The translations under genes were made by a program, and so were the position numbers. A stretch of DNA of 64,000 nt. It comes from a virus. Of this stretch, positions 120 through 53,320 are shown piece by piece. The stretch covers positions 1 through 64,000 of the IMG/VR virus record IMGVR_UViG_3300050014_000073; one strand, written 5' to 3'. Under the pieces are notes generated by a model. It was not told the DNA's origin and searched no databases. It saw only the letters and a list, made by a program, of their open reading frames with translations. Position 1 is the stretch's first letter, and every line of letters starts with the position of its first letter.

Positions 120-132
120 TTGCTCTCCTTGT

Positions 133-189
133 TTTCCCTCTGTGTTTGGTACGGGCTTGGGACCGTTCTCTTTCGAGAGCCACATTACC
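133..189 (-). ncRNA. twister ribozyme (with P3 hairpin; P1 weak or absent)
   Basis: Minus strand reads UAA-UGU-GGC-[UCUC GAAA GAGA]-ACGG UCCC AAGC CCGU-ACCAAAC-ACA-GA-GGG; matches twister core with P2 UGU/ACA, P4 ACGG/CCGU, pseudoknot CCC/GGG. Confidence 0.88.
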
Positions 190-224
190 TTCAGCCCTGG
201 GGAGAGCTGAAGTGTTGAAAGAAG

Positions 225-595: not shown

Positions 596-653
596 TTTCG
601 TCCTCCGCTTTCTTCCCGCTGGACTTGGAACCAGCCGTTGGCGCGTTACGAGA
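596..653 (-). ncRNA. twister ribozyme
   Basis: UCG-UAA-CGC-GC-CAACGG-CUGG UUCC AAGU CCAG-CGGGAAGAAA-GCG-GA-GGA-CGA; P1 UCG/CGA, P2 CGC/GCG, pseudoknot UCC/GGA. Confidence 0.82.
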
Positions 654-779
654 CCGTGCAGGTGGGGGCTTAACCGTCAGCCCCCACCTATCTCCCACCC
701 GACCGCTCCGGGACCGTCCTAGCGACCCGGAGAGGTCAAGTTTTCGGTGTTTTAGGCGTCCCGGGAGTCTTCCCGGGAG

Positions 780-1787
780 CTACGAGACCGTGATAGCACC
801 TCTTGCTTGAGCAGTACTGACCGCCCAGCCCACGTAGTCTCGCAGACCGATTGCTTGGAGCGCCTGCTTGTAGTCGGCGAGCGTCATCCCGTCGCGCAGG
901 ACGTTGATAGCTACCATCCGCTTGCCACCCACGCGAACCAGTCCAAGGTTGATGACGTGAATCGTAGCATGAGGCGAAACTTTTGGTGCACGAGGACCAG
1001 CTGCGGGACGCGGCGCTCCGGGAGTTGCAGCCTTCCGGCTTGCTCGTCCTGCCTTGGGAACCTTACCAACGGGCTTCATCAGACGGTCGGCTTTCGCAGC
1101 CCAGTCATATACGTTGCTGAGGACCGTAGGCAGCGTCGCGATGTACTTGACTCCGTCGAGCGAGGCAGTACCCTCTTCATCAGTCACGATGCTGAGAACC
1201 TGCGTGACCGTGGGAACTTCCCCAAGTACCGTTTTCAGCGGAGGGCGTCCGATCATCTGGTCGAGTTCAGCAGATGGGATCAGAACCTCTCCGTTGAGGA
1301 ACTCACGATCAGCGTTGAACGTGATCCGGAACTTTGTACCTGAGACAGCGAAGGCACCATTCAGGTTACCAAGTACCGTCATCACGTCCTGTACATGCTG
1401 TCCTTTCTGAGGAGCAGCAGCGTCCACTAGCGGCAAGCTGTTCTTCATAGCCCAGAGCTTCTCGAACAGCCGGATGGCCGTCGTCAGTGCCTGAGCCTTT
1501 TCACCTTCGGACGTATTGTTCTCGCCAAGAGCCTTCGCCTTGAGCGCCCTGTCATACGTCTTGATCTGGTCACTGTCCAACGGAGCGCCTGCAATCATCA
1601 TCGTGATGTTGTTGGCGTACCATTCGATTGCTAGCTGTAAGCCCAGCGTGACGCTGAGTGCCTTCCATTCGTAGGCTGTTTGCAAACCTGTGAGGTCCAG
1701 TCGGAGGGGCTGAACTGCGATGGGCGGCGGTACGGTGTTGGTGTTCACACCATACCCGTACCCACGCCTTCTACCGAATCTTGGCAT
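780..1787 (-). CDS. hypothetical protein with basic Pro/Ala linker and small C-terminal domain
   Basis: 335-aa ORF, AAGGAGAG RBS. Confidence 0.8.
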   Translation of the reverse strand: MPRFGRRRGYGYGVNTNTVPPPIAVQPLRLDLTGLQTAYEWKALSVTLGLQLAIEWYANNITMMIAGAPLDSDQIKTYDRALKAKALGENNTSEGEKAQALTTAIRLFEKLWAMKNSLPLVDAAAPQKGQHVQDVMTVLGNLNGAFAVSGTKFRITFNADREFLNGEVLIPSAELDQMIGRPPLKTVLGEVPTVTQVLSIVTDEEGTASLDGVKYIATLPTVLSNVYDWAAKADRLMKPVGKVPKAGRASRKAATPGAPRPAAGPRAPKVSPHATIHVINLGLVRVGGKRMVAINVLRDGMTLADYKQALQAIGLRDYVGWAVSTAQARGAITVS

Positions 1788-1930: not shown

Positions 1931-2911
1931 CTACGAGTTGGTGGGTGGCGGTAGGAGTTTGCGGTGAACGGCTTCGACGAACTTGGCTTCGAACTCTCTC
2001 TCAGAATTAACTACGCAGTATTCCCCGCCAAGTGCGACGCAAGCGGCGCGGAGTTCAGCATTGGCGCAGCCCTCTTCGCCAATGTGGATGTAGTCAAGAA
2101 CGATGCCGGAGGCTTTCAGATTTGGGACCCACGAGCTGATTGCCATGCTGGCGCTCCCATCTTCGCCGTCTGTCACCAAGATGAAGTGATGCAGCCCGAC
2201 GACGCTGGGGTGTTTGCGGCAGCAGTCAACGCCTTTCTTGATAGCCTTGAGAATGTCCGTCCCGCCGCCAAGCCCTTCGGCTAGGTTGCCCACGATCGGC
2301 CAGAGCTGTTCGGGCTTGCCGTCGTCAAATCGAACTTCGGCGGTTGACGCGAACGGGATGACGGCCACACGGGAGTTGGGGAACTTTGCGAACCGGGCTT
2401 GCAGTTCACTCTTGGCTAGCTTACGGACTAGCTCCAAACGCGTGGGAGGCTGCTGGTGCTTTTTGCTGAAGTCGACTGCGACTCCGAGGTACGCGATGAG
2501 ATCAGTCCGTAGGATGCGGGCTTTGAGGTCCTCGTCATCTTTGGGGTTGAACGCCGGACCAGCATTCACGGCTCCGACCGGAGCGTCGTCCACCAGTTTG
2601 AGCAAGTCGGACTCGTTGCAGCCCATCCCTCCGGACATGATGAACTCGTTGATTGCAGCAGCAACGCGGGTGCGGACGTCAGCGAGTAGTGCAGCTGGCC
2701 AAAGGTACTGGTCGGTGTAGGTTTGGCCCGTCTTGTCTGCCGCAACGCGCATACCCATCGAACCGCTGACGTCGAACAGGAAGACAATCTTGGCATGCTC
2801 GGTGTAAGTGTCTGAAACGGACTTGAGAACGGAAGTCTTTTGCACTTCGGTTTGGCGCAAGGTCAAGGCGCTACCCATGCTGCCGGAAAGATTCATGTTG
2901 TCGAGTTTCAC
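1931..2911 (-). CDS. von Willebrand factor A (vWA) domain protein
   Basis: MIDAS DVSGSM, GGTD, ILVTDG motifs. Confidence 0.9.
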   Translation of the reverse strand: MKLDNMNLSGSMGSALTLRQTEVQKTSVLKSVSDTYTEHAKIVFLFDVSGSMGMRVAADKTGQTYTDQYLWPAALLADVRTRVAAAINEFIMSGGMGCNESDLLKLVDDAPVGAVNAGPAFNPKDDEDLKARILRTDLIAYLGVAVDFSKKHQQPPTRLELVRKLAKSELQARFAKFPNSRVAVIPFASTAEVRFDDGKPEQLWPIVGNLAEGLGGGTDILKAIKKGVDCCRKHPSVVGLHHFILVTDGEDGSASMAISSWVPNLKASGIVLDYIHIGEEGCANAELRAACVALGGEYCVVNSEREFEAKFVEAVHRKLLPPPTNS

Positions 2912-3219: not shown

Positions 3220-3914
3220 TGGATTTGCTCTCCTTGTTTTGTCCCGTTGGCATACTGCTTCCAAGCGCACCTCGTGGCGGTGGGATCTTGCGCTCTGGGA
3301 ACGAGGATGTTTTCTCGCTCCCCTTGAAATTCAAAATTTTCCGTTTTCGTGATGAGTATTTGCCGGTTCCTTAAGAGCCGCACGGCGCTCGTCCTTGCAC
3401 TCGCCGTCTCCAACTCGCTTGTGGTATACGGCTAACGGCCCGGTTTGCGGTGCGGTCGCTATATATAGGTTGCGTTTGGCGCCTTTCCGGTTTTGGGGTA
3501 CTAGCTTCGGCCTCTCCTGCGCCTAACCCTCGTTGCTCCCAATGGCGTTTGCTAGTGGCTGTCCTAGCCGTCTGGGTACGGGGTGCGGCACGGTATGGGC
3601 GCTGCGTTCCGCCTCACGGTGTGGCTATTTAGTTGTCTAAAGAACTGGGCTCGGTACGGCCAGGGTGGCGTAATACCTAGCGCTCCCGGAGTTGCACCGT
3701 GGCGCTACTGGTACCGGGCGTCCCGCCCGTCCCGCCGCTACTGTCCGTACCGTTTTCATAACCTAATACCTTTATAAACCCTAGCGGGAGGTTTCGGGTG
3801 GTTTTGCGGAACTATTTTTTGAGTTCTAAGCCCTTTGTTTGCAACGGGGACCTGAACTTTGCGAATAAAAGCACATTGCGAAAGTTCGGATTTGACCAGT
3901 TTACGGCGTTACGA

Positions 3915-5648: not shown

Positions 5649-8462
5649 TTATACGGGAAGTTCTCTTAGAGTTGAAATCCCGTCCTTCTTTGTAACTTCC
5701 CAATGGCGATCTGGTTCCAGTTCCGACAAGACGTAAGGTGAATGCGAAATCACGATGACGTGCTTGAACCGTTCAATTACGGAACTCAGTCCCTGTGCAA
5801 AAGCTCTTGCGTTCGAGGCATCTAGTCCCTCCGTAGGCTCGTCCATCACTAGGAGGTTATGAGGAACAAGTGCATCCCGGAAAGCAAGAGCCGTTATCAG
5901 GCCCGCGAGACGCATCTCTCCAGCGCTCTGGTCCTTTATGGATTTCCCCCCATGAAGATTGCAAACTCGGACGTCAATGTCTCCTCCCGAAATCTCGAAT
6001 TGGATTCCAATCTCTCCTTCCGAGAAGATCTCGCTGTATTTAGAAGCTGCAGAGTTGAGTGCCGGTGCTACGACGGAGCACAAGTAAGCCGGGAGCCCAT
6101 CACGTCCTACAACTTTGACACAAGTCTCAAGAAACTGAACTTCTTCTAACCAGGCAAGATTTGCTCTTTCATGAACAGACCGCTTTTGCTTCAGTTCTGC
6201 TCCACGTGACATCTTGGAAGAGAGAATTGTTTCCAGACGCCGACGAGCATCAGCTTGCTCTTTTAGAACGGTCAAACTGCTGTTCAAGGCAGTCAAAGTT
6301 CGTCGCATCTTATCGCTCTGGAAATTATTCGCTTGGATCTTTTCAATGAGAGTTCGACGAGTAGTTCGGTTCTCGTTTTGCAATCCTTCATAGCGTTCAA
6401 GAGTGACTTCTTCACAGGCAATCTTCGACTTGATCTCCTCTTGGTATTTCTCGAGAGTTTCAACGGATACTTTCCCTCCGCAGACATAGCAGCGTCCAGA
6501 GACTTTTGCACTCGCGTCGTACTGTTCCTTAAGAGTTTCGATCTTCGTTTCCGATTCCGTTGCTTTCGAGAGATAGCTTTCAAACTCCTGCTGGTTCTTT
6601 TCCATTGTTGGCTCCAGCGTCTTATTCATTAGGGCGTTCCGACGAATTGAAGCCTCTTCCTCAGCAACGGCTTTCTCTGTCTCGGAAACTTTCTTCGAAT
6701 CAACTTCGGGAGTTGTTGTAAGAGTCTCCTGTATCTCGGTCAGTCCTCTGACAGTCTCTTCAAGAGCGGAATCAAGCGAACGGATTTCACCTTCGGTATC
6801 TTCGACATTATTACGGCAGCGTGAAAGGACTTTCCGGATCTTCTCCTGAGCTTCCAGGAATCGGTCAAGTCCAAGAAGACGGCTGAACAGTTCCTTCCTG
6901 TCTTTCTCGGTTCCGAACACTGAACCAATCTCGCGCTGCCCAATATAGACAGCATTCGTCAGAACAGACCAGGTCAAGTTTGTCAGGCGTTCAATGCGCA
7001 TCTGAGTGGCCTCAGCTGTTCCCATTGAAATCTCACTTCCGTCAAGATAAATCCGCAGCCGTCCAGGACGCCGTCCTCGTTCGATTCGGAGACTTCGTCC
7101 GTCCGGTATCTCCAAACTTTGTGTGACAAGTGCTGGAAGAGTGGACTCCTGACGCGCCCAGCCGTCAAATGTCTGGCCTTTGAAAGTTCGTCCGAAAAGA
7201 GCAAGAAAGGGCAATGCAGTAACGCTTGATTTCCCACTTCCGTTACTTACACTCTCGTCCGGGTTCCAGTCCAGGTTCTTTCCGGTGATGAGAGTGAGTC
7301 CTTTTTGGTCCAGGTTCAGCTTGATGTCTTTGAAACAGAGAACTTCCTTCGCAGTGACCTCTCCGAACTTCAATCCCTGAACGCCGAATACTCCAATTGA
7401 CTTGAGGTACGTCTGCAAATATGCAATAACTTGATCGACTGTCACTCCTGCTGGAAGCACCAGCTTCTCAAGGTAGTCACGAAGAAGTCCCTCGTCGTTC
7501 TTGGTTGTGTCAATACTGGTGGGAACAGCTTGTGGAGCAACAAACTCGGGAACGAGGTGAAGGTTTGCTCCTGGATAATGCTTTTCGCAGATCTTTCTAG
7601 CTGAGGCGAGTTCCTTTGGAACGTCGTTCTCAATGGGCACTGAAATGCGAACTCTTGTTCCCGTCCAGTCTATCGGGGAAAAGAAGTCTTTCTTAGAAGG
7701 GTCGTACCAGCCGGGAACTCGACTGGGAACGAGAGTGACGCAGTGCTTGAGGGTCTTCTCATCGATGTCAAGGCAGAAGATGCTCTTCAGTTCATTCACT
7801 TCGCTCCAAGTTTGGCAAAACGGGGAACCTGCGAAATAGATTGGAGTTCCTTTTCCTCCCTTGGGAACTAATAGTTGTGGGAGGTGAATGTGACCTCCAA
7901 CGCAGATATTATAAGTTTCAGCAGAGAGGTAAGGACGAATGAGACCTTTCCCTTTCGTATAGGTGCTTTGCTGACACCCTTCGACCTCGTTGTGGAAAAC
8001 AAGGATGCCAAAATCGCTAGAAGGGTATTTCGTAGCTTCCTGAGCGGCTGCTGCAAACTCCTTCCGTTGAGATTCCGGATCACGCAGGTATGGAACTAAG
8101 AACAGCCGGACGTGAGGTCCTAGCTTCGCAACTTTCCAACCGTGATCCGCGACAACGTCTGCTCCAAGAGCTTCGATAAGAGTAGCGCAGGACGGTGAAC
8201 CATCATGAATAGTCACGCTGTCATGATTTCCGCGAAGGAAATAAACTCCTTGACACTGTTCCCGAATCCTTCGAACGGATTCAACCAGGAAATTTGTAAC
8301 TCTCTGATCAATCAAAGTTGCTGGACCGTTGGCGCTCCCGACAATGTCTCCCAGATGAACAACGAAATCTGGTTTCAGGGAAAGGATCTGATCGACGATG
8401 ATTTGGCAGCGATCTAAGTTCTCGAGGAAGCAATGCCAATCTCCACTCATGATGACACGCAT
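5649..8462 (-). CDS. fused SbcD (Mre11-like metallophosphoesterase)-SbcC (Rad50-like ATPase)
   Basis: GDWH, LGD, GNHD, GHIH nuclease motifs; NGSGKS Walker A, coiled coil with CYVC hook, SAGE signature, LLVMDEP Walker B, VISH. Confidence 0.9.
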   Translation of the reverse strand: MRVIMSGDWHCFLENLDRCQIIVDQILSLKPDFVVHLGDIVGSANGPATLIDQRVTNFLVESVRRIREQCQGVYFLRGNHDSVTIHDGSPSCATLIEALGADVVADHGWKVAKLGPHVRLFLVPYLRDPESQRKEFAAAAQEATKYPSSDFGILVFHNEVEGCQQSTYTKGKGLIRPYLSAETYNICVGGHIHLPQLLVPKGGKGTPIYFAGSPFCQTWSEVNELKSIFCLDIDEKTLKHCVTLVPSRVPGWYDPSKKDFFSPIDWTGTRVRISVPIENDVPKELASARKICEKHYPGANLHLVPEFVAPQAVPTSIDTTKNDEGLLRDYLEKLVLPAGVTVDQVIAYLQTYLKSIGVFGVQGLKFGEVTAKEVLCFKDIKLNLDQKGLTLITGKNLDWNPDESVSNGSGKSSVTALPFLALFGRTFKGQTFDGWARQESTLPALVTQSLEIPDGRSLRIERGRRPGRLRIYLDGSEISMGTAEATQMRIERLTNLTWSVLTNAVYIGQREIGSVFGTEKDRKELFSRLLGLDRFLEAQEKIRKVLSRCRNNVEDTEGEIRSLDSALEETVRGLTEIQETLTTTPEVDSKKVSETEKAVAEEEASIRRNALMNKTLEPTMEKNQQEFESYLSKATESETKIETLKEQYDASAKVSGRCYVCGGKVSVETLEKYQEEIKSKIACEEVTLERYEGLQNENRTTRRTLIEKIQANNFQSDKMRRTLTALNSSLTVLKEQADARRRLETILSSKMSRGAELKQKRSVHERANLAWLEEVQFLETCVKVVGRDGLPAYLCSVVAPALNSAASKYSEIFSEGEIGIQFEISGGDIDVRVCNLHGGKSIKDQSAGEMRLAGLITALAFRDALVPHNLLVMDEPTEGLDASNARAFAQGLSSVIERFKHVIVISHSPYVLSELEPDRHWEVTKKDGISTLRELPV

Positions 8463-8473
8463 GTATTTTCCTT

Positions 8474-8572
8474 TTTAGCGACCCTAGGACCGTCGCTGCA
8501 TCCTAACCTATGGAAAAGTACCTAACAACCCGTCCGGACGTGTCCTAGCGACCCGTAGCGATCAGGTTTAGG
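8474..8572 (-). repeat. dispersed two-box element, copy 1
   Basis: CTACGGGTCGCTAGG-47 nt-GCGACGGTCCTAGGGTCGCTAAA; 32 bp identical to 41687-41718. Confidence 0.8.
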
Positions 8573-8587
8573 TCCCTAATGGACAGT

Positions 8588-8687
8588 GTTTCAATCCACG
8601 CCGCTCGCGCGGGCAGCGACGACATTTTAGTTACGCTCCTAATGCCACCACCTGATTTCAATCCACGCCGCTCGCGTGGGCGGCGAC
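8588..8687 (-). CRISPR. type I-C-like CRISPR mini-array (2 repeats, 1 spacer)
   Basis: 33-nt repeats 8655-8687 and 8588-8620 (GTCGCYGCCCRCGCGAGCGGCGTGGATTGAAAY) around a 34-nt spacer 8621-8654; no cas genes in window. Confidence 0.92.
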
Positions 8688-8762
8688 TTCTCGCCTCTCA
8701 AACTGTAATTGCTCCGCCGAGGAATACAGATAACAGAACCAGACTTCCGTATTCTAGAAGCT

Positions 8763-9752
8763 TCACTGTCTAGCTCCGTAACGTGAACATATCTGATAGA
8801 GTTCAGCGTGTAGCCAATGAACCCACATCGCGTCATCGTAAGGAGGCGAGCAAAGCTCTAACAAACATTTCGCTGCCCGGGCTTGCCCTACTGGAGTGGG
8901 CTCCTTGACGAGAATCCCCTTGAGCCATCCTGCCATACAAGCGCGAAGAAAGCGGCTGTCTTCTGGAGTTGTGTCTTTCAGAAGAGTGCAGGTCTCTTTC
9001 CAGTTCCCGGAAGTCACTGCTCGACAAAGCCGGAACGTGTCAACCGAAGATCCGTCAGCTCCAGCAGCAGCATCACTTGCTGTTGCACCAGCAGCGTACT
9101 TCTCGAGAGCTTGAAGCAGAAGCCCTGGAGCGCTGACGCGCATGATATGAACAGCTTCAATTAAAGGATCAAGAGCACGAGTCACTTCAGCTTTGGCTGC
9201 ATACTTCTTAAGAAAGTTCTCAGTGTCTGTAATTCCAAGAGTCTTCAACTGGTACTTCGTGCAGCGCCGGATGCTTGCTACAGGAACTTTCCGTATCTCA
9301 GACGTGCAGAGAATCCAGACGGTGAATTCAGGAGGCTCCTCCATAGGAGTCAAGATGGCATTCCAAGCCTGTTTACTCAGACCGTGGCATTCGTCGAGTA
9401 TGATAATGCGCTTCATCCCAGTGATAGGACGGTGCTGGCTTAGTTCGGCGATCTTCTCGAGTTCGTCTACTCCGGAATGCTCTGATGCATTGATCTCGTG
9501 AATTGGGAAGTTGGAGAAATTCTTCCAGCAGTCTTCACAAGGGTCACCCCAGAGTTTCATGTGGGAGCACTGGAATGCAAGCGCAATAATACGTGCCAAT
9601 GTTGTTTTCCCTGATCCGGATTCACCGTAGAACAACCAGGTTCTTGGTGGGCGTTTTGCCATGTGCTGCCGGATCGCGGAAACAATTGCCGTCTGCCCGT
9701 ATAGTCCACTTAGAGTTCTCGGGCGCATTGAGAGATTGAGCGTTCTTGGCAT
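8763..9752 (-). CDS. clamp loader, DnaX/RFC-like AAA+ ATPase
   Basis: GESGSGKTT, C-x-PCxxC zinc motif, EINAS, IILDECH, EEPP, SIRRC. Confidence 0.92.
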   Translation of the reverse strand: MPRTLNLSMRPRTLSGLYGQTAIVSAIRQHMAKRPPRTWLFYGESGSGKTTLARIIALAFQCSHMKLWGDPCEDCWKNFSNFPIHEINASEHSGVDELEKIAELSQHRPITGMKRIIILDECHGLSKQAWNAILTPMEEPPEFTVWILCTSEIRKVPVASIRRCTKYQLKTLGITDTENFLKKYAAKAEVTRALDPLIEAVHIMRVSAPGLLLQALEKYAAGATASDAAAGADGSSVDTFRLCRAVTSGNWKETCTLLKDTTPEDSRFLRACMAGWLKGILVKEPTPVGQARAAKCLLELCSPPYDDAMWVHWLHAELYQICSRYGARQ

Positions 9753-9970: not shown

Positions 9971-11695
9971 TTACTCTCCTTCCTTCTTCTTGACATCGTC
10001 AGCCGGGACAAATTCTAGCGGTCCGTTGAAAAGTAATCTGTAGCCAATCTCCGAGGATTCTCCTCCACCCGTCTTGTTCTTGAGGCATTTCATGATTCCA
10101 CGAATACCGATCACTTCGCCCTTATCCATAATCTTGCTCCCCGCAACGCGGTGAACTCGAACTCGAACGTGGCTGTAGAACTTTGGGGCATTGCCTCCCG
10201 GTGTATGAGAAGAGTCACCAAACGATGATTTGGGGCCTTCACGAAGCTGGTTGACAAGAATGATAAGTGCATTATGAACTTGCGCACATCCTACCCAACG
10301 CCGAAGAAGCCTCCCCATGAAAAGAGGAAGGTCCATATTCGTTCGCATGTTGGCATCTTCAAGGCCCGTGAGGGATTCACCTTCAGTAAGGAGTGCTGCG
10401 ATGGAGTCTAAGACAACAACTCGTTTCGTATGCCCTTTTTGTTGCATTGACGCTTCGATCTCACTACAGAGCTCTTGAGCAGTCGAGAGCCGAGGATTCT
10501 TCTCTTGGTGAGTCTTCCCGGTCTTCTTGTCAACGTAACTGAACTGACCAACATAGGGCTGAATCAAAGTCAGTTTGGATACATCGAGACCAGCCGTCGT
10601 AGCTTCAGGACCGCCGCAGGAAATGCATTCGGTAAGAATAGCAGGGTCTTTCACTGTTGGACGGGTTCCAGTTCCATTGCAGTGCGGGCACTTTGCCATC
10701 CCACGGACCCTTGCCCAACCGGGATCGAAACTGTTCTCGACGTCACCGTATACAACATGGGCCCCGTCGTATTGAGCAAGAGCCGCGATTGACATCACGA
10801 GGGCCGACTTTCCCTGTGAGTTATGGACCACGACGCCGTTCGCAACGAAGTTGTCGATCCCTGGAACGGTCATGTCGTAGACGTCTTCGTAGCCGTAGAA
10901 TTCCACCTTCTTGACTTTGCCGGATCTTCCTTCTAAGTTCCGTTTTGTTGCGTGGTACGAGAGGTGATCGAAGCAAGTCTTCCATTCGAGGTTGTCGACG
11001 GAATGATTATGGTCGTTCTCGTCTTTATGATGCCCGTCCCATTCATCTGTCGGACGATCACCATAAATCTCTGAAAGAATGAACCGATGCTCCGAAAAAT
11101 TCTCACCGTTGTTCAAATGAATTACAGAATGCCCGTTCGTCAGCTTCCGAAAGAAGGGCATGATGCGATCTCCCGGCTTCAGATCTGAAAGTTTTCGGTA
11201 TCCTTGTGACTCCCAATCGTAAGCGGAACTGTACTTCGATCGAGAGGTTGAACGTTCACGAAGCATGAACGGATGAGAAGCAGTCGCGATAATGAACTCG
11301 GGTTGCTTTCCATAGATACGAACTGAGTTCTTAGGGACTTGGAAGGTTACTTTGTAGACAGGACGCTTTCCTACTTTCCAGACACAAGACGCCTGTCGAA
11401 GTACGATGCGTCCTAACTTCTGATCAAAGCCATACACCCATGGCTTGGTCCCGACAAGGTTTTTGATGGGGATTCCTTTCGGGAATCTATCAAGGTCTCG
11501 CGGACAGTCGATTAAAGTTTCTCCGGCGAGACACTCCCACCCAGAAACTTCGATCATCCTCCCATACGGGATTCCGCGATCCTTGTGTCCTAGAACAGTA
11601 TTCAGTCCGGGGATTTTCGTGTCAAGCCAGAGCTGAGGCGTCCATTTGAGAGTAAGATGCCCCAGAGCTTGCCGTATCCTGTCTAATTCAGTCAT
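9971..11695 (-). CDS. recA: RecA/UvsX-like recombinase containing an intein
   Basis: GIPYGRMIEVSGWE/SQGKS split P-loop, VVLDSIAAL, NQLR, TPGGNAPKFY, KNK. Confidence 0.93.
   Translation of the reverse strand: MTELDRIRQALGHLTLKWTPQLWLDTKIPGLNTVLGHKDRGIPYGRMIEVSGWECLAGETLIDCPRDLDRFPKGIPIKNLVGTKPWVYGFDQKLGRIVLRQASCVWKVGKRPVYKVTFQVPKNSVRIYGKQPEFIIATASHPFMLRERSTSRSKYSSAYDWESQGYRKLSDLKPGDRIMPFFRKLTNGHSVIHLNNGENFSEHRFILSEIYGDRPTDEWDGHHKDENDHNHSVDNLEWKTCFDHLSYHATKRNLEGRSGKVKKVEFYGYEDVYDMTVPGIDNFVANGVVVHNSQGKSALVMSIAALAQYDGAHVVYGDVENSFDPGWARVRGMAKCPHCNGTGTRPTVKDPAILTECISCGGPEATTAGLDVSKLTLIQPYVGQFSYVDKKTGKTHQEKNPRLSTAQELCSEIEASMQQKGHTKRVVVLDSIAALLTEGESLTGLEDANMRTNMDLPLFMGRLLRRWVGCAQVHNALIILVNQLREGPKSSFGDSSHTPGGNAPKFYSHVRVRVHRVAGSKIMDKGEVIGIRGIMKCLKNKTGGGESSEIGYRLLFNGPLEFVPADDVKKKEGE
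10820..11533 (-). mobile_element. intein (238 aa) with HNH homing endonuclease in the RecA Walker A motif
   Basis: Starts CLAGET, block B TASHPF, EHR..HHKDENDHNHSVDNL, ends VYDMTV..NFVANGVVVHN followed by Ser. Confidence 0.93.
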
Positions 11696-12836: not shown

Positions 12837-13010
12837 TTACTCCTTGTCCTTGTTATCGTTGTCTTTAGAGTTGTCGAAGTTCAACATGCGACGTAGATGT
12901 TGCCGTTTCTCTTCGAAGAATGTTCGTACGGAAATTCTGATGACCGCCGTCACCGCAATCACAACGAGAAGCGGCCCAGCTACGAATTCGATGACGGGAG
13001 TGAGTGCCAT
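12837..13010 (-). CDS. small membrane protein (57 aa, not in ORF track)
   Basis: MALTPVIEFVAGPLLVVIAVTAVIRI..., GGAG RBS, fills operon gap. Confidence 0.6.
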   Translation of the reverse strand: MALTPVIEFVAGPLLVVIAVTAVIRISVRTFFEEKRQHLRRMLNFDNSKDNDNKDKE

Positions 13011-13016
13011 AATTAT

Positions 13017-13505
13017 TTACTCTCCGGGGAAGCGATCTTTCAGTCGGCGGCGGGACTCTTTCGTTTTCTCAGCAGCAGCTTCGATGGATCGCCCCATCGA
13101 ATACTCGGACTGCACCATATTCTCAACAATACGCAAACAGTCTCTCCGCATCCGAAACGCTTCCACAACAAGTTGGGAATAGATATCGAGAGTCTCGGTG
13201 CGAGCCAACTTCTTTGCGAAGTCTTCGACGATTGTGTTGGTGAGAAGCAGTGCGTCAATGTTCCCTTCAGTAAGCTTATTGCCGTTGGCGCGGGCGTCTT
13301 CTCGGATTTTGAGCTCCTTCTCAGCACGAATCTTCTCCCACGCCATTTTCGCTGCTGTCTTGTTTTCGAGGCATTGAAGACGATAGTCTATCGCTGTCAC
13401 GAAGAGGACACTATTTTCAGCAGCTGCTTGTACGACGTTATCGGGAGAGAAGTCAATCTTCTCAAGAAGGACTGAGACGTTGATAGGTTTGCTAACGGGA
13501 TTCAT
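13017..13505 (-). CDS. helical protein, UvsY-like recombination mediator candidate
   Basis: KLTEGNIDA motif, helical, next to SSB and RecA. Confidence 0.55.
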   Translation of the reverse strand: MNPVSKPINVSVLLEKIDFSPDNVVQAAAENSVLFVTAIDYRLQCLENKTAAKMAWEKIRAEKELKIREDARANGNKLTEGNIDALLLTNTIVEDFAKKLARTETLDIYSQLVVEAFRMRRDCLRIVENMVQSEYSMGRSIEAAAEKTKESRRRLKDRFPGE

Positions 13506-21298: not shown

Positions 21299-21907
21299 CT
21301 ACTGGATGGGCTCTGGCCGCCTGCGCCGCATTAGACTCAATGCCAAAAGTCCCGCCCCGAGCAGAAATAGCGAGGTTGGCTCAGGCGCATTGGAGGATGC
21401 CACGAAAGCCTGGGTGCCACTCCCGGCCACTGGCTCGATATATTCCACCGAGCCGAAATTGAACGTTGGGATCTCGGAGCTTGCCGTCCAGAGGTAGGAA
21501 GCCATACTCGCGGTCGTCGCAAAGGCCCCCTGGTCGAAGACGTTCCACATATCCTGCTGGATGTCGATCTGCGACTGCGGTGTAGGCGTTAGCAGTGTCG
21601 AAAGCACGCCAATCAATTCGTAGCCTTGGAGTGCTCCCCGATCGGCGGAGAACATGCCGGAGGACGCCGCCTCGCCCAGCGTGTCGATATTGGCCATCCA
21701 GCTTTCGCCGGTTGTGATTTCGTTGAATAGGTCGTAGCAGTCGGCGGATATGTCCAGACTTCCGACTGTGAGAAAGTAAGGCAGAACGTAATCGGAGCCG
21801 TTGTTTACCCCGGTTGTCCCGTTGAATGTGACCTGAATCGTTTCCGCATTCAGGCAAATTGTACCCACCAATAAGGCCATGGCGAGCAGTTTAATCGTCG
21901 TTTTCAT
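21299..21907 (-). CDS. PEP-CTERM sorted surface protein
   Basis: Signal peptide MKTTIKLLAMALLVG; C-terminal APEPTSLFLLGAGLLALSLMRRRR. Confidence 0.92.
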   Translation of the reverse strand: MKTTIKLLAMALLVGTICLNAETIQVTFNGTTGVNNGSDYVLPYFLTVGSLDISADCYDLFNEITTGESWMANIDTLGEAASSGMFSADRGALQGYELIGVLSTLLTPTPQSQIDIQQDMWNVFDQGAFATTASMASYLWTASSEIPTFNFGSVEYIEPVAGSGTQAFVASSNAPEPTSLFLLGAGLLALSLMRRRRPEPIQ

Positions 21908-22120
21908 GTTGTGTTCATTCCTCCTGGGCGGATTACGCACCGCCCCGCGCTGTACCTGGTCCACTAGATTCTGCAAGGCGTGATAGGTTTTCTCAAGCAT
22001 CTTCGTCTCCTTTTTGATCCAGTTTCTAATCCCTTAATTTGCTCTCAGTCCGGGATCGACATTATTGGGACTTGCAAGATAGACTGTCATGTGTTTGCTC
22101 AACAGGGTGAGTCTTTAAAG

Positions 22121-29737: not shown

Positions 29738-29859
29738 AACTTCCTAAAGTTCGTATGCTCCGGCAGATTCTATATTGGATGGAGGAGCGACAGAGACGAA
29801 TGCGCCTGGCAAACGCCGCCGTATGGGTGTTACGGAAACAGAAGAGGAGACTTATATGA
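29734..29859 (+). pseudogene. 41-aa truncated paralog of the downstream aGPT-Pplase1 gene
   Basis: MKLPKVRMLRQILYWMEERQR vs MKLPPVRNLKKFLWFMEERQR. Confidence 0.7.
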
Positions 29860-30773
29860 AGTTGCCTCCGGTAAGGAACTTGAAGAAGTTTTTGTGGTTT
29901 ATGGAGGAGCGCCAAAGGGTTTATTTAAGGCGACAGGCAGGTGAACCTTATCCTTGGACTTCGGATCCCATCTTACGCCGCTTTCGATTTTGCAATGTTT
30001 ATCGAGAGCAGGATCGGGTGACGACTTTTTGGCGAGAACGTTGGGCAAAGAAATACGCTGATCACTCGAACTTATGGTTTGCTGCTTGCTTGTTTCGGCA
30101 CATCAACTGGCCCAATACGCTCGAAGAAATTGGATTCCCCAAAGAGTGGAATCCTCGTAAGGTCCTTCGCATTCTCGAGAAGCGGAAAGCACGGGGAGAT
30201 AAAGTCTACACAAGTGCTTATCTTCTCGGAGGCGGAAACACCAAGCATGAAACCAAAGTCCGCTACACGGTGATGACAGTATTGAATCCTGTGTGGAAGT
30301 GGGTTGAGAAGGCTCTTCCTGGAACGGGTCGTATTGCTCCTTGGTTAACTGACGGAACTGATGACGTTCCCTGTACGTTACGCGAAATGTTCGATTGGCT
30401 CTGCCAGTTCCACGGCTTCGGGAAGTTTCTCTCCTACGAAATCGTCACCGATCTTCGTCATACTCGTTATCTATGCAACGCTCCTGACATAATGACTTGG
30501 GCGAATCTCGGTCCGGGAGCGCAGCGCGGATTGAACCGTCTTTACGAACGGGAGCTGAATCAGTCACATCCCCAGGCTCAGCTTCTCGAAGAGCTTCTGG
30601 CAATTCAAGAGTGGGTGGTTAAGAACCGTGATTCGAGAGTTCTTCCTACGATAGAGCCACGAGATCTCGAACATAGTTTTTGCGAGTGCGACAAACTTCT
30701 TAGAGCCAAGGAGCGCCTTGTGCAAGGACGTATAATCGGTCTAGAAAGATTCAGACATCCAGGCTTGATTTGA
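29856..30773 (+). CDS. aGPT-Pplase1 family DNA hypermodification protein
   Basis: ERQRVY..PWTSDPIL..FCNVYREQDRVT, FRHINW, GKFLSYEIVTD, GPGAQRGL, EHSFCECDK. Confidence 0.88.
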   Translation: MKLPPVRNLKKFLWFMEERQRVYLRRQAGEPYPWTSDPILRRFRFCNVYREQDRVTTFWRERWAKKYADHSNLWFAACLFRHINWPNTLEEIGFPKEWNPRKVLRILEKRKARGDKVYTSAYLLGGGNTKHETKVRYTVMTVLNPVWKWVEKALPGTGRIAPWLTDGTDDVPCTLREMFDWLCQFHGFGKFLSYEIVTDLRHTRYLCNAPDIMTWANLGPGAQRGLNRLYERELNQSHPQAQLLEELLAIQEWVVKNRDSRVLPTIEPRDLEHSFCECDKLLRAKERLVQGRIIGLERFRHPGLI

Positions 30774-36145: not shown

Positions 36146-36523
36146 GTGTCTCCTCGTAAATCACACAAGCTTCTTAAGGGCCCAGCTCTGTCCGAGATCC
36201 TTCGGGTCACAGTTCACCAAGTCAAGTGGTTCGTCGCGGGCCAGCCTACTCTTTTGATTCCTCCTTCAACGGCGCTTGCTCTTGTGAGAGAGGGCGAGTA
36301 TGAAGGTAAGGCAAGTGCCCAGCGAGTCTACTACATACGTGAAATTGACAATTGTCCAAAGCCTGTATGCAATCCTTCGTATTGGGACGACCGTGCTGTC
36401 TACCCTGGTGAAACAGATTCGCCTTCACGACATACTGTAGACCTCTGGGACCAAATTCTCAAGCGCCGTTCCAGTCGCGTAGCTGTTCAAGTTGTCGCCG
36501 CCCACGCGAGCGGCGTGGATTGA
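36146..36523 (+). CDS. hypothetical protein whose stop codon lies inside a CRISPR repeat
   Basis: 125-aa ORF. Confidence 0.55.
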   Translation: MSPRKSHKLLKGPALSEILRVTVHQVKWFVAGQPTLLIPPSTALALVREGEYEGKASAQRVYYIREIDNCPKPVCNPSYWDDRAVYPGETDSPSRHTVDLWDQILKRRSSRVAVQVVAAHASGVD

Positions 36524-36526
36524 AAT
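36494..36526 (+). CRISPR. solitary type I-C-like repeat
   Basis: GTCGCCGCCCACGCGAGCGGCGTGGATTGAAAT, identical to reverse complement of 8655-8687. Confidence 0.88.
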
Positions 36527-36540
36527 CAGGTATTTGAAGA

Positions 36541-36873
36541 ATGGCTTCTCCTTCTTCCGGTTTCCTCGCAGCGTCGCTTTCATCTGCAGCTCCCGCTATT
36601 AGTTCCCGCCTTCGTTCCTCTGTTCGTTCCGCTCTTAACTCGCATCAGTCATTGAAAGCCGTCCGCGGTCGCGGATCAGAAGTTCAGTCACATCGTTCAG
36701 CTCTTGTCTACTTGCGCGAGCTTGAAGCTGAACTTTGTTTGGTCCAGAACTTGTTGTTGGACGCTTGGAAAGAGTGCGACTACTCGCGGGATTTCCGGAA
36801 GTTTATTCGTCATACTGACCAGGCTCAGCAGCGACTTCATCAAGCGATCAAGAAGCTTGCCAGGACCGTATAA
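36541..36873 (+). CDS. hypothetical protein
   Basis: Ends ACC GTA TAA. Confidence 0.6.
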   Translation: MASPSSGFLAASLSSAAPAISSRLRSSVRSALNSHQSLKAVRGRGSEVQSHRSALVYLRELEAELCLVQNLLLDAWKECDYSRDFRKFIRHTDQAQQRLHQAIKKLARTV

Positions 36874-38890: not shown

Positions 38891-38923
38891 GTCGCTGCCC
38901 GCGCGAGCAGCGTGGATTGAAAC
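38891..38923 (+). CRISPR. solitary type I-C-like repeat
   Basis: GTCGCTGCCCGCGCGAGCAGCGTGGATTGAAAC; one mismatch to reverse complement of 8588-8620. Confidence 0.88.
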
Positions 38924-38949: not shown

Positions 38950-39306
38950 ATGGCACAAGGAAGTCAGTATCACGTCAACGCCCGGGATAAAGACCGGGTC
39001 CAGTGTATGGCAGAGGGCGGAGTTCCAGAGACTCGGATTGCAGAAATCCTCGACATGGCTCCGAAGACCCTACGCAAGTATTACGGAAAGCTCATCAAGG
39101 ATTGTTTGGACGAAACCGTAGGCAAGATTGGTCACTCGATTGTCCAGAGAGCCTTAGATCTGAACTGCCGTGACGGGGCTTCCTGTGCAATGTTCTATCT
39201 CAAGACCCGAGGCAACAAGTACGGATGGTCCGAGAAGATTGGGTTTGATGACGCAGCTGCTAGCTTGATTAAGCGGGTCATTGGCGTGAAAGACGACGAA
39301 ATCTGA
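38950..39306 (+). CDS. terminase small subunit
   Basis: HTH IAEILDMAPKTLRKYY, AMFYLKTRG..GW; upstream of TerL. Confidence 0.8.
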   Translation: MAQGSQYHVNARDKDRVQCMAEGGVPETRIAEILDMAPKTLRKYYGKLIKDCLDETVGKIGHSIVQRALDLNCRDGASCAMFYLKTRGNKYGWSEKIGFDDAAASLIKRVIGVKDDEI

Positions 39307-39323: not shown

Positions 39324-39716
39324 TTGCGTGAACATCGTGTTACTCACCCAACGTTCGGAGTTGTTACCTGGTTCGAAATCAAAGCTGGAACTGCTTCTCT
39401 TACCAAGTCTCTCAAAAAGCGGATTTGTAGCTGGTGCCTTAAGGAAGTTCATGGGTCTCGCCGGACACGTTGTGGAAGTAAGGAATGCGATGAGGCCTTG
39501 CACCGTGCGCAGCGTTATTCATATTGTCGAGGCATTCAGCTTCGTGAACACCGATTCTGCGAGTGTGGAGTACGCGGATCTGAAGTTGACCACGTTGTTC
39601 CAGTCAGTCTTGGTGGAACTGGTGACAAGAGCAACCTCCGTACTTTGTGTCGTGCCTGCCATAAGGTTGCAACTGCTTTGCTTCGCGCAATGAAATCCAA
39701 GTACAAGGCTATATAA
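39324..39716 (+). CDS. HNH endonuclease
   Basis: EVDHVVPVSLGGTGDKSNLRTLCRACH. Confidence 0.88.
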   Translation: MREHRVTHPTFGVVTWFEIKAGTASLTKSLKKRICSWCLKEVHGSRRTRCGSKECDEALHRAQRYSYCRGIQLREHRFCECGVRGSEVDHVVPVSLGGTGDKSNLRTLCRACHKVATALLRAMKSKYKAI

Positions 39717-41684: not shown

Positions 41685-41686
41685 AC

Positions 41687-41783
41687 CCTAAACCTGATCG
41701 CTACGGGTCGCTAGGACAGTCTGTAGACTCTGGATAGGTACTTTTCTACGCCATAGTCAACGCTAGCCTTAAACGGTCTCTAA
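41687..41783 (+). repeat. dispersed two-box element, copy 4
   Basis: CCTAAACCTGATCGCTACGGGTCGCTAGGACA identical to copy 1; TAGGTACTTTTC shared; degenerate second box. Confidence 0.75.
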
Positions 41784-53193: not shown

Positions 53194-53231
53194 CGAGCTC
53201 GAAATGGACCGCTACAGTCGTAAAACTGAGT

Positions 53232-53320
53232 GCTACGGGTCGCTAGGGCAGCTTGCAAGGGTCTAACTAGTATATTTCATAGGGTAGCCGGTCAGAGACC
53301 GTCCTAGGGTCGCTAAACAC
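53232..53320 (+). repeat. dispersed two-box element, copy 5
   Basis: GCTACGGGTCGCTAGG-47 nt-GAGACCGTCCTAGGGTCGCTAAACAC. Confidence 0.8.

Follow-up and report, generated by a model that had tools for sequence, protein, structure and literature searches.

The 64,000-nt stretch of DNA analysed here, below called the window, is the first part of an 83,140-bp linear IMG/VR virus record (IMGVR_UViG_3300050014_000073; completeness ~80%) of a peat phage. At positions 8588–8687 it contains a genuine type I-C CRISPR mini-array that is Cas-less, and this element belongs to a set of four I-C repeat mimics in the 83-kb phage. The interpretation that we tentatively favour, at a probability of roughly 45%, is that Cas5c of the host would process the phage repeat RNAs and that these would occupy Cascade, in a counter-defence resembling the Racr and Cracr elements. 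It is built on the copy number and orientation of the repeats, their kinship to cas-linked I-C repeats, their pattern of conservation, and the lack of cas genes in the phage.

The mini-array consists of two repeats that enclose one spacer, from which a CRISPR RNA (crRNA) can be predicted:

8687->8655, minus strand: repeat R1, 33 nt, GTCGCCGCCCACGCGAGCGGCGTGGATTGAAAT; type A (C6, A11, A16, G19, U33), lower stem pair C6-G19
8654->8621, minus strand: spacer, 34 nt, crRNA sense CAGGTGGTGGCATTAGGAGCGTAACTAAAATGTC
8620->8588, minus strand: repeat R2, 33 nt, GTCGCTGCCCGCGCGAGCGGCGTGGATTGAAAC; type B (U6, G11, A16, G19, C33)
8665->8599, minus strand: predicted mature crRNA, 67 nt, comprising an 11-nt 5' handle, the 34-nt spacer and a 22-nt 3' stem-loop part

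The two 33-nt repeats and the single 34-nt spacer are thus present as the initial annotation had described them, and a repeat search of the window returned two 32-nt copies with 94% identity at a spacing of 67 nt. The repeats have the properties expected of type I-C, namely a length of 33 nt, a stem-loop, and an 11-nt 3' tail (UGGAUUGAAA plus C or U) identical to that of host I-C repeats; the I-C repeat length and tail layout reported in PMC8524198 agree with them as well. A spacer length of 34 nt is the modal one in related host arrays (195/528 spacers from the 77 loci of the host-repeat scan described below). The mini-array begins 75 nt past the stop codon of a clamp-loader gene and sits in the 300-nt gap between this gene and a gene for an SbcD-SbcC-like fusion protein. 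Its sense strand is the minus strand, which it shares with the flanking replication and recombination genes (clamp loader, SbcD-SbcC-like and RecA/UvsX-like), so that its proposed co-orientation with the replication operon was borne out. The cas5c, cas7c, cas8c and cas3 core was not detected in the phage record, whereas the same cas8c and cas5c searches were positive in host genomes.

The mini-array is not the only place where the phage carries this repeat. At ≤3 mismatches, the window contains four matches, while none of 100 shuffled versions reached four (the largest shuffle count was 0); the rest of the 83-kb record holds no further copies. Besides R1 and R2, these matches are two solitary repeats:

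36494–36526, plus strand: solitary repeat S1 (type A), identical to R1; followed by the 5 nt CAGGT (to 36531), with which the spacer of the mini-array begins
38891–38923, plus strand: solitary repeat S2 (type B with A19, giving a U6-A19 pair), one base from R2

The identity between R1 and S1 spans 38 nt in total. S1 overlaps the stop codon of an open reading frame (ORF) at 36146–36523, and from its end to the ATG at 36541 there are 14 nt. The distance from the end of S2 to the ATG at 38950 is 26 nt, and the 118-aa ORF that starts there is followed by an HNH gene and the gene for the large terminase (TerL). Both are intergenic and sense to the plus-strand operon in which they lie. The phage therefore contains four copies of one I-C repeat family, all of them intergenic and all sense to the local operon, which speaks for the proposed RNA mimicry. 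S1 and S2 have the layout by which Racr elements are recognised (intergenic, no second repeat within ~100 bp, no cas genes), but the two-repeat mini-array does not. The order of a type A followed by a type B repeat is common to the mini-array (R1, 34 nt, R2) and to the 2,364-nt block of small ORFs delimited by S1 and S2. Searches of the small ORFs around the solitary repeats in Pfam, PHROGs, PDB sequences and the Atlas for anti-CRISPR (acr) genes yielded only DUF7352/phrog_3848 and an HNH domain. A possible promoter at S2, formed by TTGAAA of the handle and TAAAAT 17 nt later (10/12 matching positions), was given no weight, as the whole region contains three such sites against 2.6 expected. 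Separately, a 23/33 match to the repeat (…GCGCAGCGCGGATTGAACC) was seen at 30505–30537 on the plus strand inside the ORF 29775–30773; it may be due to chance or be an old, decayed copy.

Some further sequences close to the mini-array were considered. Rfam gave nothing at gathering score in the whole window and nothing at S1 or S2; for the mini-array, the CRISPR-DR9 matches of 17–18 bits stayed far below the gathering score of 45 and were discarded. The word GTCGCTA recurs 68 and 70 nt after R2 (8552 and 8482), as would be the case for decayed third and fourth repeats. Beyond GTCGCT these sites do not align to the repeat, and the idea was dropped because 8541–8574 is one copy of a separate motif that is dispersed in the phage. 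This motif of ~32–34 nt (sense ...CCTAAACCTGATCGCTACGGGTCGCTAGGACA) is found in the window at 8541–8574 (+), 715–748 (+), 41685–41718 (-) and 53217–53250 (-), and a fifth time at 74243–74276 (+) of the record. In the window, all four copies lie between genes and read in the direction of the genes around them, one beginning 13 nt past R2, and the motif is a candidate phage promoter or RNA element.

The way in which the four repeat copies differ is informative. Positions 1–5, positions 20–22 and the handle at 23–32 (UGGAUUGAAA) are invariant. The stem pair 6-19 is C-G in R1 and S1, U.G in R2 and U-A in S2, and the remaining differences are confined to loop position 11 and the last base (33). Recognition by Cas5c is reported to depend on the base of the stem, on the 3' overhang and on the UGG that follows the cut, but not on the loop (PMC8524198). 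The phage copies thus vary only where Cas5c reportedly does not look, and we therefore read this pattern as suggestive of selection for recognition by Cas5c and Cascade, bearing in mind that it comprises four sequences and no statistics. A second feature sets the phage repeats apart from those of hosts. In 4/4 copies A16 creates a C9.A16 mismatch in the upper stem, whereas the pair 9-16 is standard in 557/557 host repeat copies (50 distinct sequences, 77 loci). The predicted phage hairpin accordingly reaches −11 to −12 kcal/mol with competing folds, compared to −16.6 kcal/mol for the host hairpin with its fully paired 8-bp stem. Since the mismatch is common to all phage copies and absent from the 557 host copies, the repeats form a phage-specific lineage and are not fresh host repeats.

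The nearest relatives of these repeats were identified by scanning one genome per species (185,579 species) with only the stem base and the handle fixed, which returned 77 loci. One consensus, GTCGCTGCCCGCGCGGGCAGCGTGGATTGAAAC, is 1 mismatch from S2 (a comparison read from the strings) and 2 from R2, and its carriers are metagenome-assembled genomes (MAGs) labelled Acidobacteriaceae, Terriglobia, Acidobacteria and Bryobacterales, and one Hydrogenedentota. Another, GTCGCCGCCCGCGCGGGCGGCGTGGATTGAAAC, is 3 mismatches from R1 and S1 and occurs in Bryobacterales, Sulfopaludibacter and one Hydrogenedentota. On contig CAVPKW010000016.1 of an Acidobacteriaceae MAG (loci L028/L087), an array of 35 repeats lies directly downstream of the genes cas3-cas5c-cas8c-cas7c-cas4-cas1c-cas2; in L087 these genes are on the sense strand of the repeat and bear NCBIfam names from matches above cut-off or strong (cas1c TIGR03640, 2.5e-148). 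With a cas-adjoining array in an Acidobacteriaceae MAG, the I-C assignment of the phage repeats and their orientation are sound. The comparison with host arrays that the initial annotation had proposed thus led to a cas-linked array, and its designation of the element as Cas-less type I-C stands, with repeats 1–3 mismatches from I-C arrays of Acidobacteriota, one of them cas-adjoining, and no cas core in the record. The L087 array and the phage repeats are alike in repeat length, handle, 67-nt period and orientation to transcription, at 1–3 mismatches. They differ in that the host has 35 repeats beside a cas operon, whereas the phage has 2 + 1 + 1 repeats and no cas genes.

An exact search of the 185,579 species genomes and of IMG/VR found no identical repeat. 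In JGI metagenome contigs, the exact phage variant occurs once: locus L091, a metagenome contig, has a host-type I-C array whose last repeats decay (3300–3700), and the second-last recognisable one, degenerate and close to the trailer end, is the GAGC variant of the phage, its sole database instance. The 528 host spacers gave no match to the phage (best ungapped identity 25/35); the best host-spacer match by blast has 16 nt, with an E value of 4e-4 for the single query and ~0.2 such matches expected for all queries together. Homology of the leader or flanks to host arrays or to other repeat-bearing viruses was not found. Judged from the repeat sequences, the phage probably infects a member of the Acidobacteriota that has a type I-C system: it is in Acidobacteriota with I-C operons that the nearest repeats occur, and the peat origin of the phage and its gene for a PEP-CTERM protein (see below) fit a Gram-negative peat host.

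Under the RNA mimicry interpretation, the mini-array would be transcribed by read-through from the clamp-loader operon, and processing by host Cas5c would release the 67-nt crRNA-like RNA with its 11-nt handle, 34-nt spacer and 22-nt hairpin part. Each solitary repeat, as well as R2, would also yield a handle-tagged RNA without a 3' hairpin. These phage RNAs could nucleate the assembly of Cas5c, Cas7c and Cas8c, so that host Cascade would be loaded with phage RNAs instead of host guides. S1 and S2 would then act like Racrs and the mini-array as a decoy guide or a Cracr-like RNA, the main benefit to the phage being counter-defence. While transcription, processing, loading and benefit are thus steps that we infer, several observations make us prefer this interpretation. 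Firstly, two of the four copies cannot be guides. Secondly, the repeats are a phage-specific lineage and not copies of host repeats. Thirdly, no target was found in a well-sampled habitat. In addition, neither a tyrosine integrase nor a serine recombinase or resolvase was found in the record, and the exclusion of rivals from a lysogen is therefore a less likely role; the phage is apparently virulent, which likewise favours RNA mimicry.

A number of points weigh against this preference. The C.A mismatch lies in the part of the hairpin that Cas5c reportedly ignores and may be neutral. The I-C system of the host is presumed from the repeats alone. No recognisable acr gene stands beside any of the four repeat copies, and neither a sigma-70-like promoter nor a terminator was found flanking the mini-array. 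Most CRISPR spacers have no database match, and negative target searches are therefore weak evidence. The mini-array is a fully canonical unit of two intact repeats and a spacer of modal length, which is more than a decoy needs and is guide-like. Most spacers of viral mini-arrays are, moreover, reported to target related viruses (PMC11656645).

These last points lead to the alternative that the mini-array encodes a normal crRNA with which host Cascade-Cas3 would destroy a rival phage or plasmid in co-infected cells, the solitary repeats being separate Racr elements or leftovers. Its canonical architecture (intact 33-nt repeats on both sides of a spacer of 34 nt, the modal length) and the retained Cas5c determinants would suit such a guide, and for SPV1 and SPV2 the targeting of related viruses by mini-array spacers is described as validated (PMC11656645). 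The spacer has no match in the phage itself and its own flank there is AAT, not TTC, so that the phage itself would not be cut. A second spacer copy is missing from the window at ≤3 mismatches, in keeping with the initial annotation, which had seen no full match elsewhere in it, and in the complete 83-kb record the best ungapped match is 20/34. The proposal of that annotation that the spacer could be aimed at a rival phage or repress a gene found no support in a protospacer, exact or relaxed. None was detected in IMG/VR with an exact and two relaxed patterns (N at every sixth base), in JGI metagenome contigs with a relaxed 28-nt pattern, in GenBank phages by blastn at E<=10 (likewise with the whole mini-array as query), in the 72 loci (59 of them related viral ones) fetched after the host-array scan, in 8 loci of other repeat-bearing viruses, or in 401 Acidobacteriota genomes at <=3 mismatches; the collection scans demand exact agreement at the specified bases, and diverged targets would escape them. 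As no collection searched yielded a protospacer, every host repeat found differs from those of the phage, and no integrase was found, we consider a guide against competitors less probable than RNA mimicry, but the strongest of the alternatives.

A spacer could also be partly complementary to the promoter of host cas genes or of a CRISPR-guarding toxin, and Cascade be reprogrammed to silence it, as proposed for Cracr-type regulators. Viral crRNA-like regulators of this kind have been reported, including nine two-spacer arrays against type I-C (bioRxiv 10.1101/2024.10.29.618823), and the phage spacer contains promoter- and ribosome-binding site-like words. Its resemblance to a gene junction, to which the initial annotation had pointed, is however not diagnostic, because two frames of its reverse complement are open as well. 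The acidobacterial I-C loci themselves carry CreR-like elements: in 3/13 loci returned around cas5c matches (G001, G002 and G420), a solitary handle of the form GTGGATTGAAAC (or ...AAGC) lies between cas3 and cas5c (L087 ~12960–13040, minus strand; L154 ~1365–1450, plus strand; L157 ~2240–2325, minus strand). At two of the three sites an 18-nt palindrome comes after the handle; on the opposite strand its far side reads TTC or TTT, and a TTGAC -35-like box is next to it. This handle-palindrome layout is the one expected of a self-targeting CreR-type repressor, for which it is a candidate. By eye, neither the phage spacer (CAGGTGGTGG seed) nor the sequences after S1, S2 and R2 are similar to any of the three CreR-like spacers of the hosts. 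Nor did the protospacer-adjacent motif check suggested by the initial annotation point to cas genes: not one of the 71 TTC-flanked 10-nt seed matches in 23 candidate host genomes, to which this test was limited, falls within 10 kb of any of the 13 cas5c matches located there, and the sole 10-nt seed match in a cas locus, inside cas3 of G001, is preceded by TCC and not TTC. Repression of host promoters in the manner of Cracr is thus unlikely in our view. Self-regulation was rejected separately, since neither the spacer nor the sequences after R2, S1 and S2 have a seed of >=8 bases flanked by TTC, TTT, CTC or TCC in the phage.

The distribution of the repeats among viruses bears on their age. 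In 59 related viral loci (573 kb; clamp loader <=55% and TerL <=51% identical), no I-C-like repeat was found at >=23/33, which argues for a recent, lineage-specific gain; closer clamp-loader homologues with 70–74% identity exist beyond this set. A recent gain would also be expected if repeats and spacer were a neutral relic that recombination with a host array had brought in and that then multiplied in the genome without having any function. The phage has recombination proteins of its own, and the R1/S1 identity over 38 nt suggests a recent duplication. On the other hand, four copies persist, all intergenic and sense-oriented, and they combine a compensated stem pair and an invariant handle with a variable loop and upper stem, a pattern that is suggestive at n=4. 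Drift would not spare exactly the Cas5c determinants, which counts against a relic and makes it, to our mind, improbable. Unrelated IMG/VR viruses contain the same I-C repeat family in 8 loci on 7 contigs, as solitary units, one two-repeat mini-array and one longer array:

L161, unrelated virus: solitary I-C repeat
L163/L164, unrelated virus: solitary I-C repeat
L165/L168, unrelated virus: solitary I-C repeat, followed by a ribosome-binding site and an ATG
L166, unrelated virus: two-repeat mini-array; its spacer ends in the same 12 nt that precede the first repeat

Carriage of I-C repeats thus recurs among viruses that face this repeat family, which counts in favour of RNA mimicry.

Small shares of the phage stretch are contained in three permafrost RNA libraries. 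Two of these have contigs over the clamp-loader, sbcCD and recA-like genes; one 523-nt contig spans the S1 locus, others cover the copy of the dispersed motif at 41.7 kb, and short contigs stem from other arrays whose repeats are 2–3 bases off those of the phage. Among the RNA-library contigs none was seen across the spacer of the mini-array, which is not evidence of silence, and the cover of 8510–8777 in two libraries derives from S1, the dispersed motif and other arrays. Because the libraries were seen as contigs, RNA ends are not readable, and such libraries can hold DNA; they show only that the phage and host-type arrays co-occur there.

The position of the repeats between genes permits a different function, in which host Cas5c would cut polycistronic phage transcripts at defined gene borders, ahead of sbcCD, of the small-gene block and of the packaging genes. 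All copies are located between genes and on the sense strand; the next start codon follows S1 after 14 nt and S2 after 26 nt. The left arm of the window in addition contains two matches to a self-cleaving RNA on the sense strand, which might provide another route of transcript cutting:

132–191, minus strand: twister-P1 ribozyme-like match, 38.5 bits, E 2.9e-06; below the Rfam gathering score of 67.2
597–652, minus strand: twister-P1 ribozyme-like match, 30 bits, E 7.9e-04; below the Rfam gathering score of 67.2

However, both twister matches are sub-threshold, and such processing would tie the expression of essential genes to a host system that is not essential. We know of no precedent for the processing of phage mRNA by host Cas5c, and deem this function highly improbable. 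A broader version, which we regard as very unlikely, would make the four repeats one system that couples phage gene expression to the CRISPR status of the host via Cas5c cuts at three gene borders. In this version, the downstream mRNAs would gain a crRNA handle by these cuts, the 2,364-nt block would be freed like a giant 'spacer', and the repeats bounding it could also swap cassettes with host arrays. If such a coupling were true, the phage would outsource its mRNA processing to ribozymes (the twister-like elements of the left arm) and to a hijacked Cas nuclease.

The genes of the record are arranged in two arms: as far as ~27.1 kb they are encoded by the minus strand, and from ~27.8 kb by the plus strand. 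Among them are the following:

5649–8462, minus strand: SbcD-SbcC-like fusion gene (Metallophos and SMC_N/AAA_23; phrog_77, 5.6e-56), downstream neighbour of the mini-array
8763–9752, minus strand: clamp-loader gene (Pfam DNA_pol3_delta2, 2.2e-20; phrog_5846, 2.1e-50), upstream neighbour of the mini-array
9971–11695, minus strand: RecA/UvsX-like gene, split by an intein that itself carries an HNH-like insert (RecA, 9.6e-21; Intein_splicing, 1.3e-10; HNH phrogs)
21299–22000, minus strand: ORF of 233 aa with a PEP-CTERM sorting motif at its end (PF07589, 25.5 bits, above the cut-off of 20.7), in the replication-side arm
39324–39716, plus strand: HNH endonuclease gene (PF01844, 3.2e-10) directly before TerL, the usual HNH-terminase pairing

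An SSB-like gene is also located further upstream of the mini-array, besides the RecA/UvsX-like gene. The PEP-CTERM ORF hints at a Gram-negative host with an exosortase. Twenty listed public runs, labelled peat or permafrost, contain the phage, 13 of them with at least half of the sampled words. A contig from an independent peat run is identical to window positions 8323–8687; the mini-array therefore does not stem from misassembly of a single sample.

That phages use CRISPR repeats for counter-defence has been recognised only recently, with Racrs described in 2023 and Cracrs in a preprint that bears the date 2026, and tests have been confined to a few model hosts. The case described here is of added interest because one phage combines a complete crRNA unit with two solitary repeats of the same family, and because drift occurs only where Cas5c reportedly does not look, so that the features of the repeat on which the phage depends can be read from the sequence. 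The similarity to host repeats furthermore provides a lead to the host of an uncultured 83-kb peat phage, and the three short phage RNAs are directly testable against a cloned acidobacterial type I-C system. A literature search retrieved no paper on viral mini-arrays or Racrs in Acidobacteriota, and the probable link to this phylum adds to the interest; the contig may figure in the supplementary lists of PMC10651486 or of the Cracr preprint.

Three types of virus-borne elements invite comparison. RacrIC1 is reported to lie 11 nt after an acrIC5 homologue, to form one bicistronic RNA with it, and to inhibit type I-C immunity in experiments (PMC10651486; Camara-Wilpert et al., Nature 2023). S1 and S2 resemble it in being virus-borne I-C repeats in the absence of cas genes, intergenic and just after a small ORF. 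In contrast, the mini-array has two repeats and a full spacer, and according to the description of SRUFinder in PMC10651486 would be set aside by this program as a (mini-)array; no acr homologue was recognised near the phage repeats, the probable host phylum is Acidobacteriota, and inhibition by the phage repeats is putative. Mini-arrays of inter-viral conflict, such as those of SPV1 and SPV2, likewise occur in viruses that lack cas genes, have one or two spacers enclosed by repeats of host type, and are described as relying on host Cas proteins (PMC11656645). In this class, however, repeats are reported to be identical to those of the host and spacers mostly to match related viruses (PMC11656645), whereas the repeats of the peat phage are 1–3 bases off every cas-linked repeat found and its spacer found no target. 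Cracrs, finally, are phage-borne repeat-spacer units with somewhat degenerate repeats that are reported to load host Cas proteins against immunity, with predicted I-C examples (Liu et al., bioRxiv 10.1101/2024.10.29.618823), and in this respect they are similar to the phage element. The preprint assigns membership by at least 9 matches proximal to the protospacer-adjacent motif (PAM) to a host CreR/CreA spacer (10.1101/2024.10.29.618823), but none was found for the phage spacer in the candidate hosts, and the hosts of Cracrs are reported to be Pseudomonadota, Bacillota and Actinomycetota, not Acidobacteriota (10.1101/2024.10.29.618823). Viral I-C solitary repeats, mini-arrays and crRNA-like regulators have thus already been described, and the repeat set of the peat phage is a further case of these.

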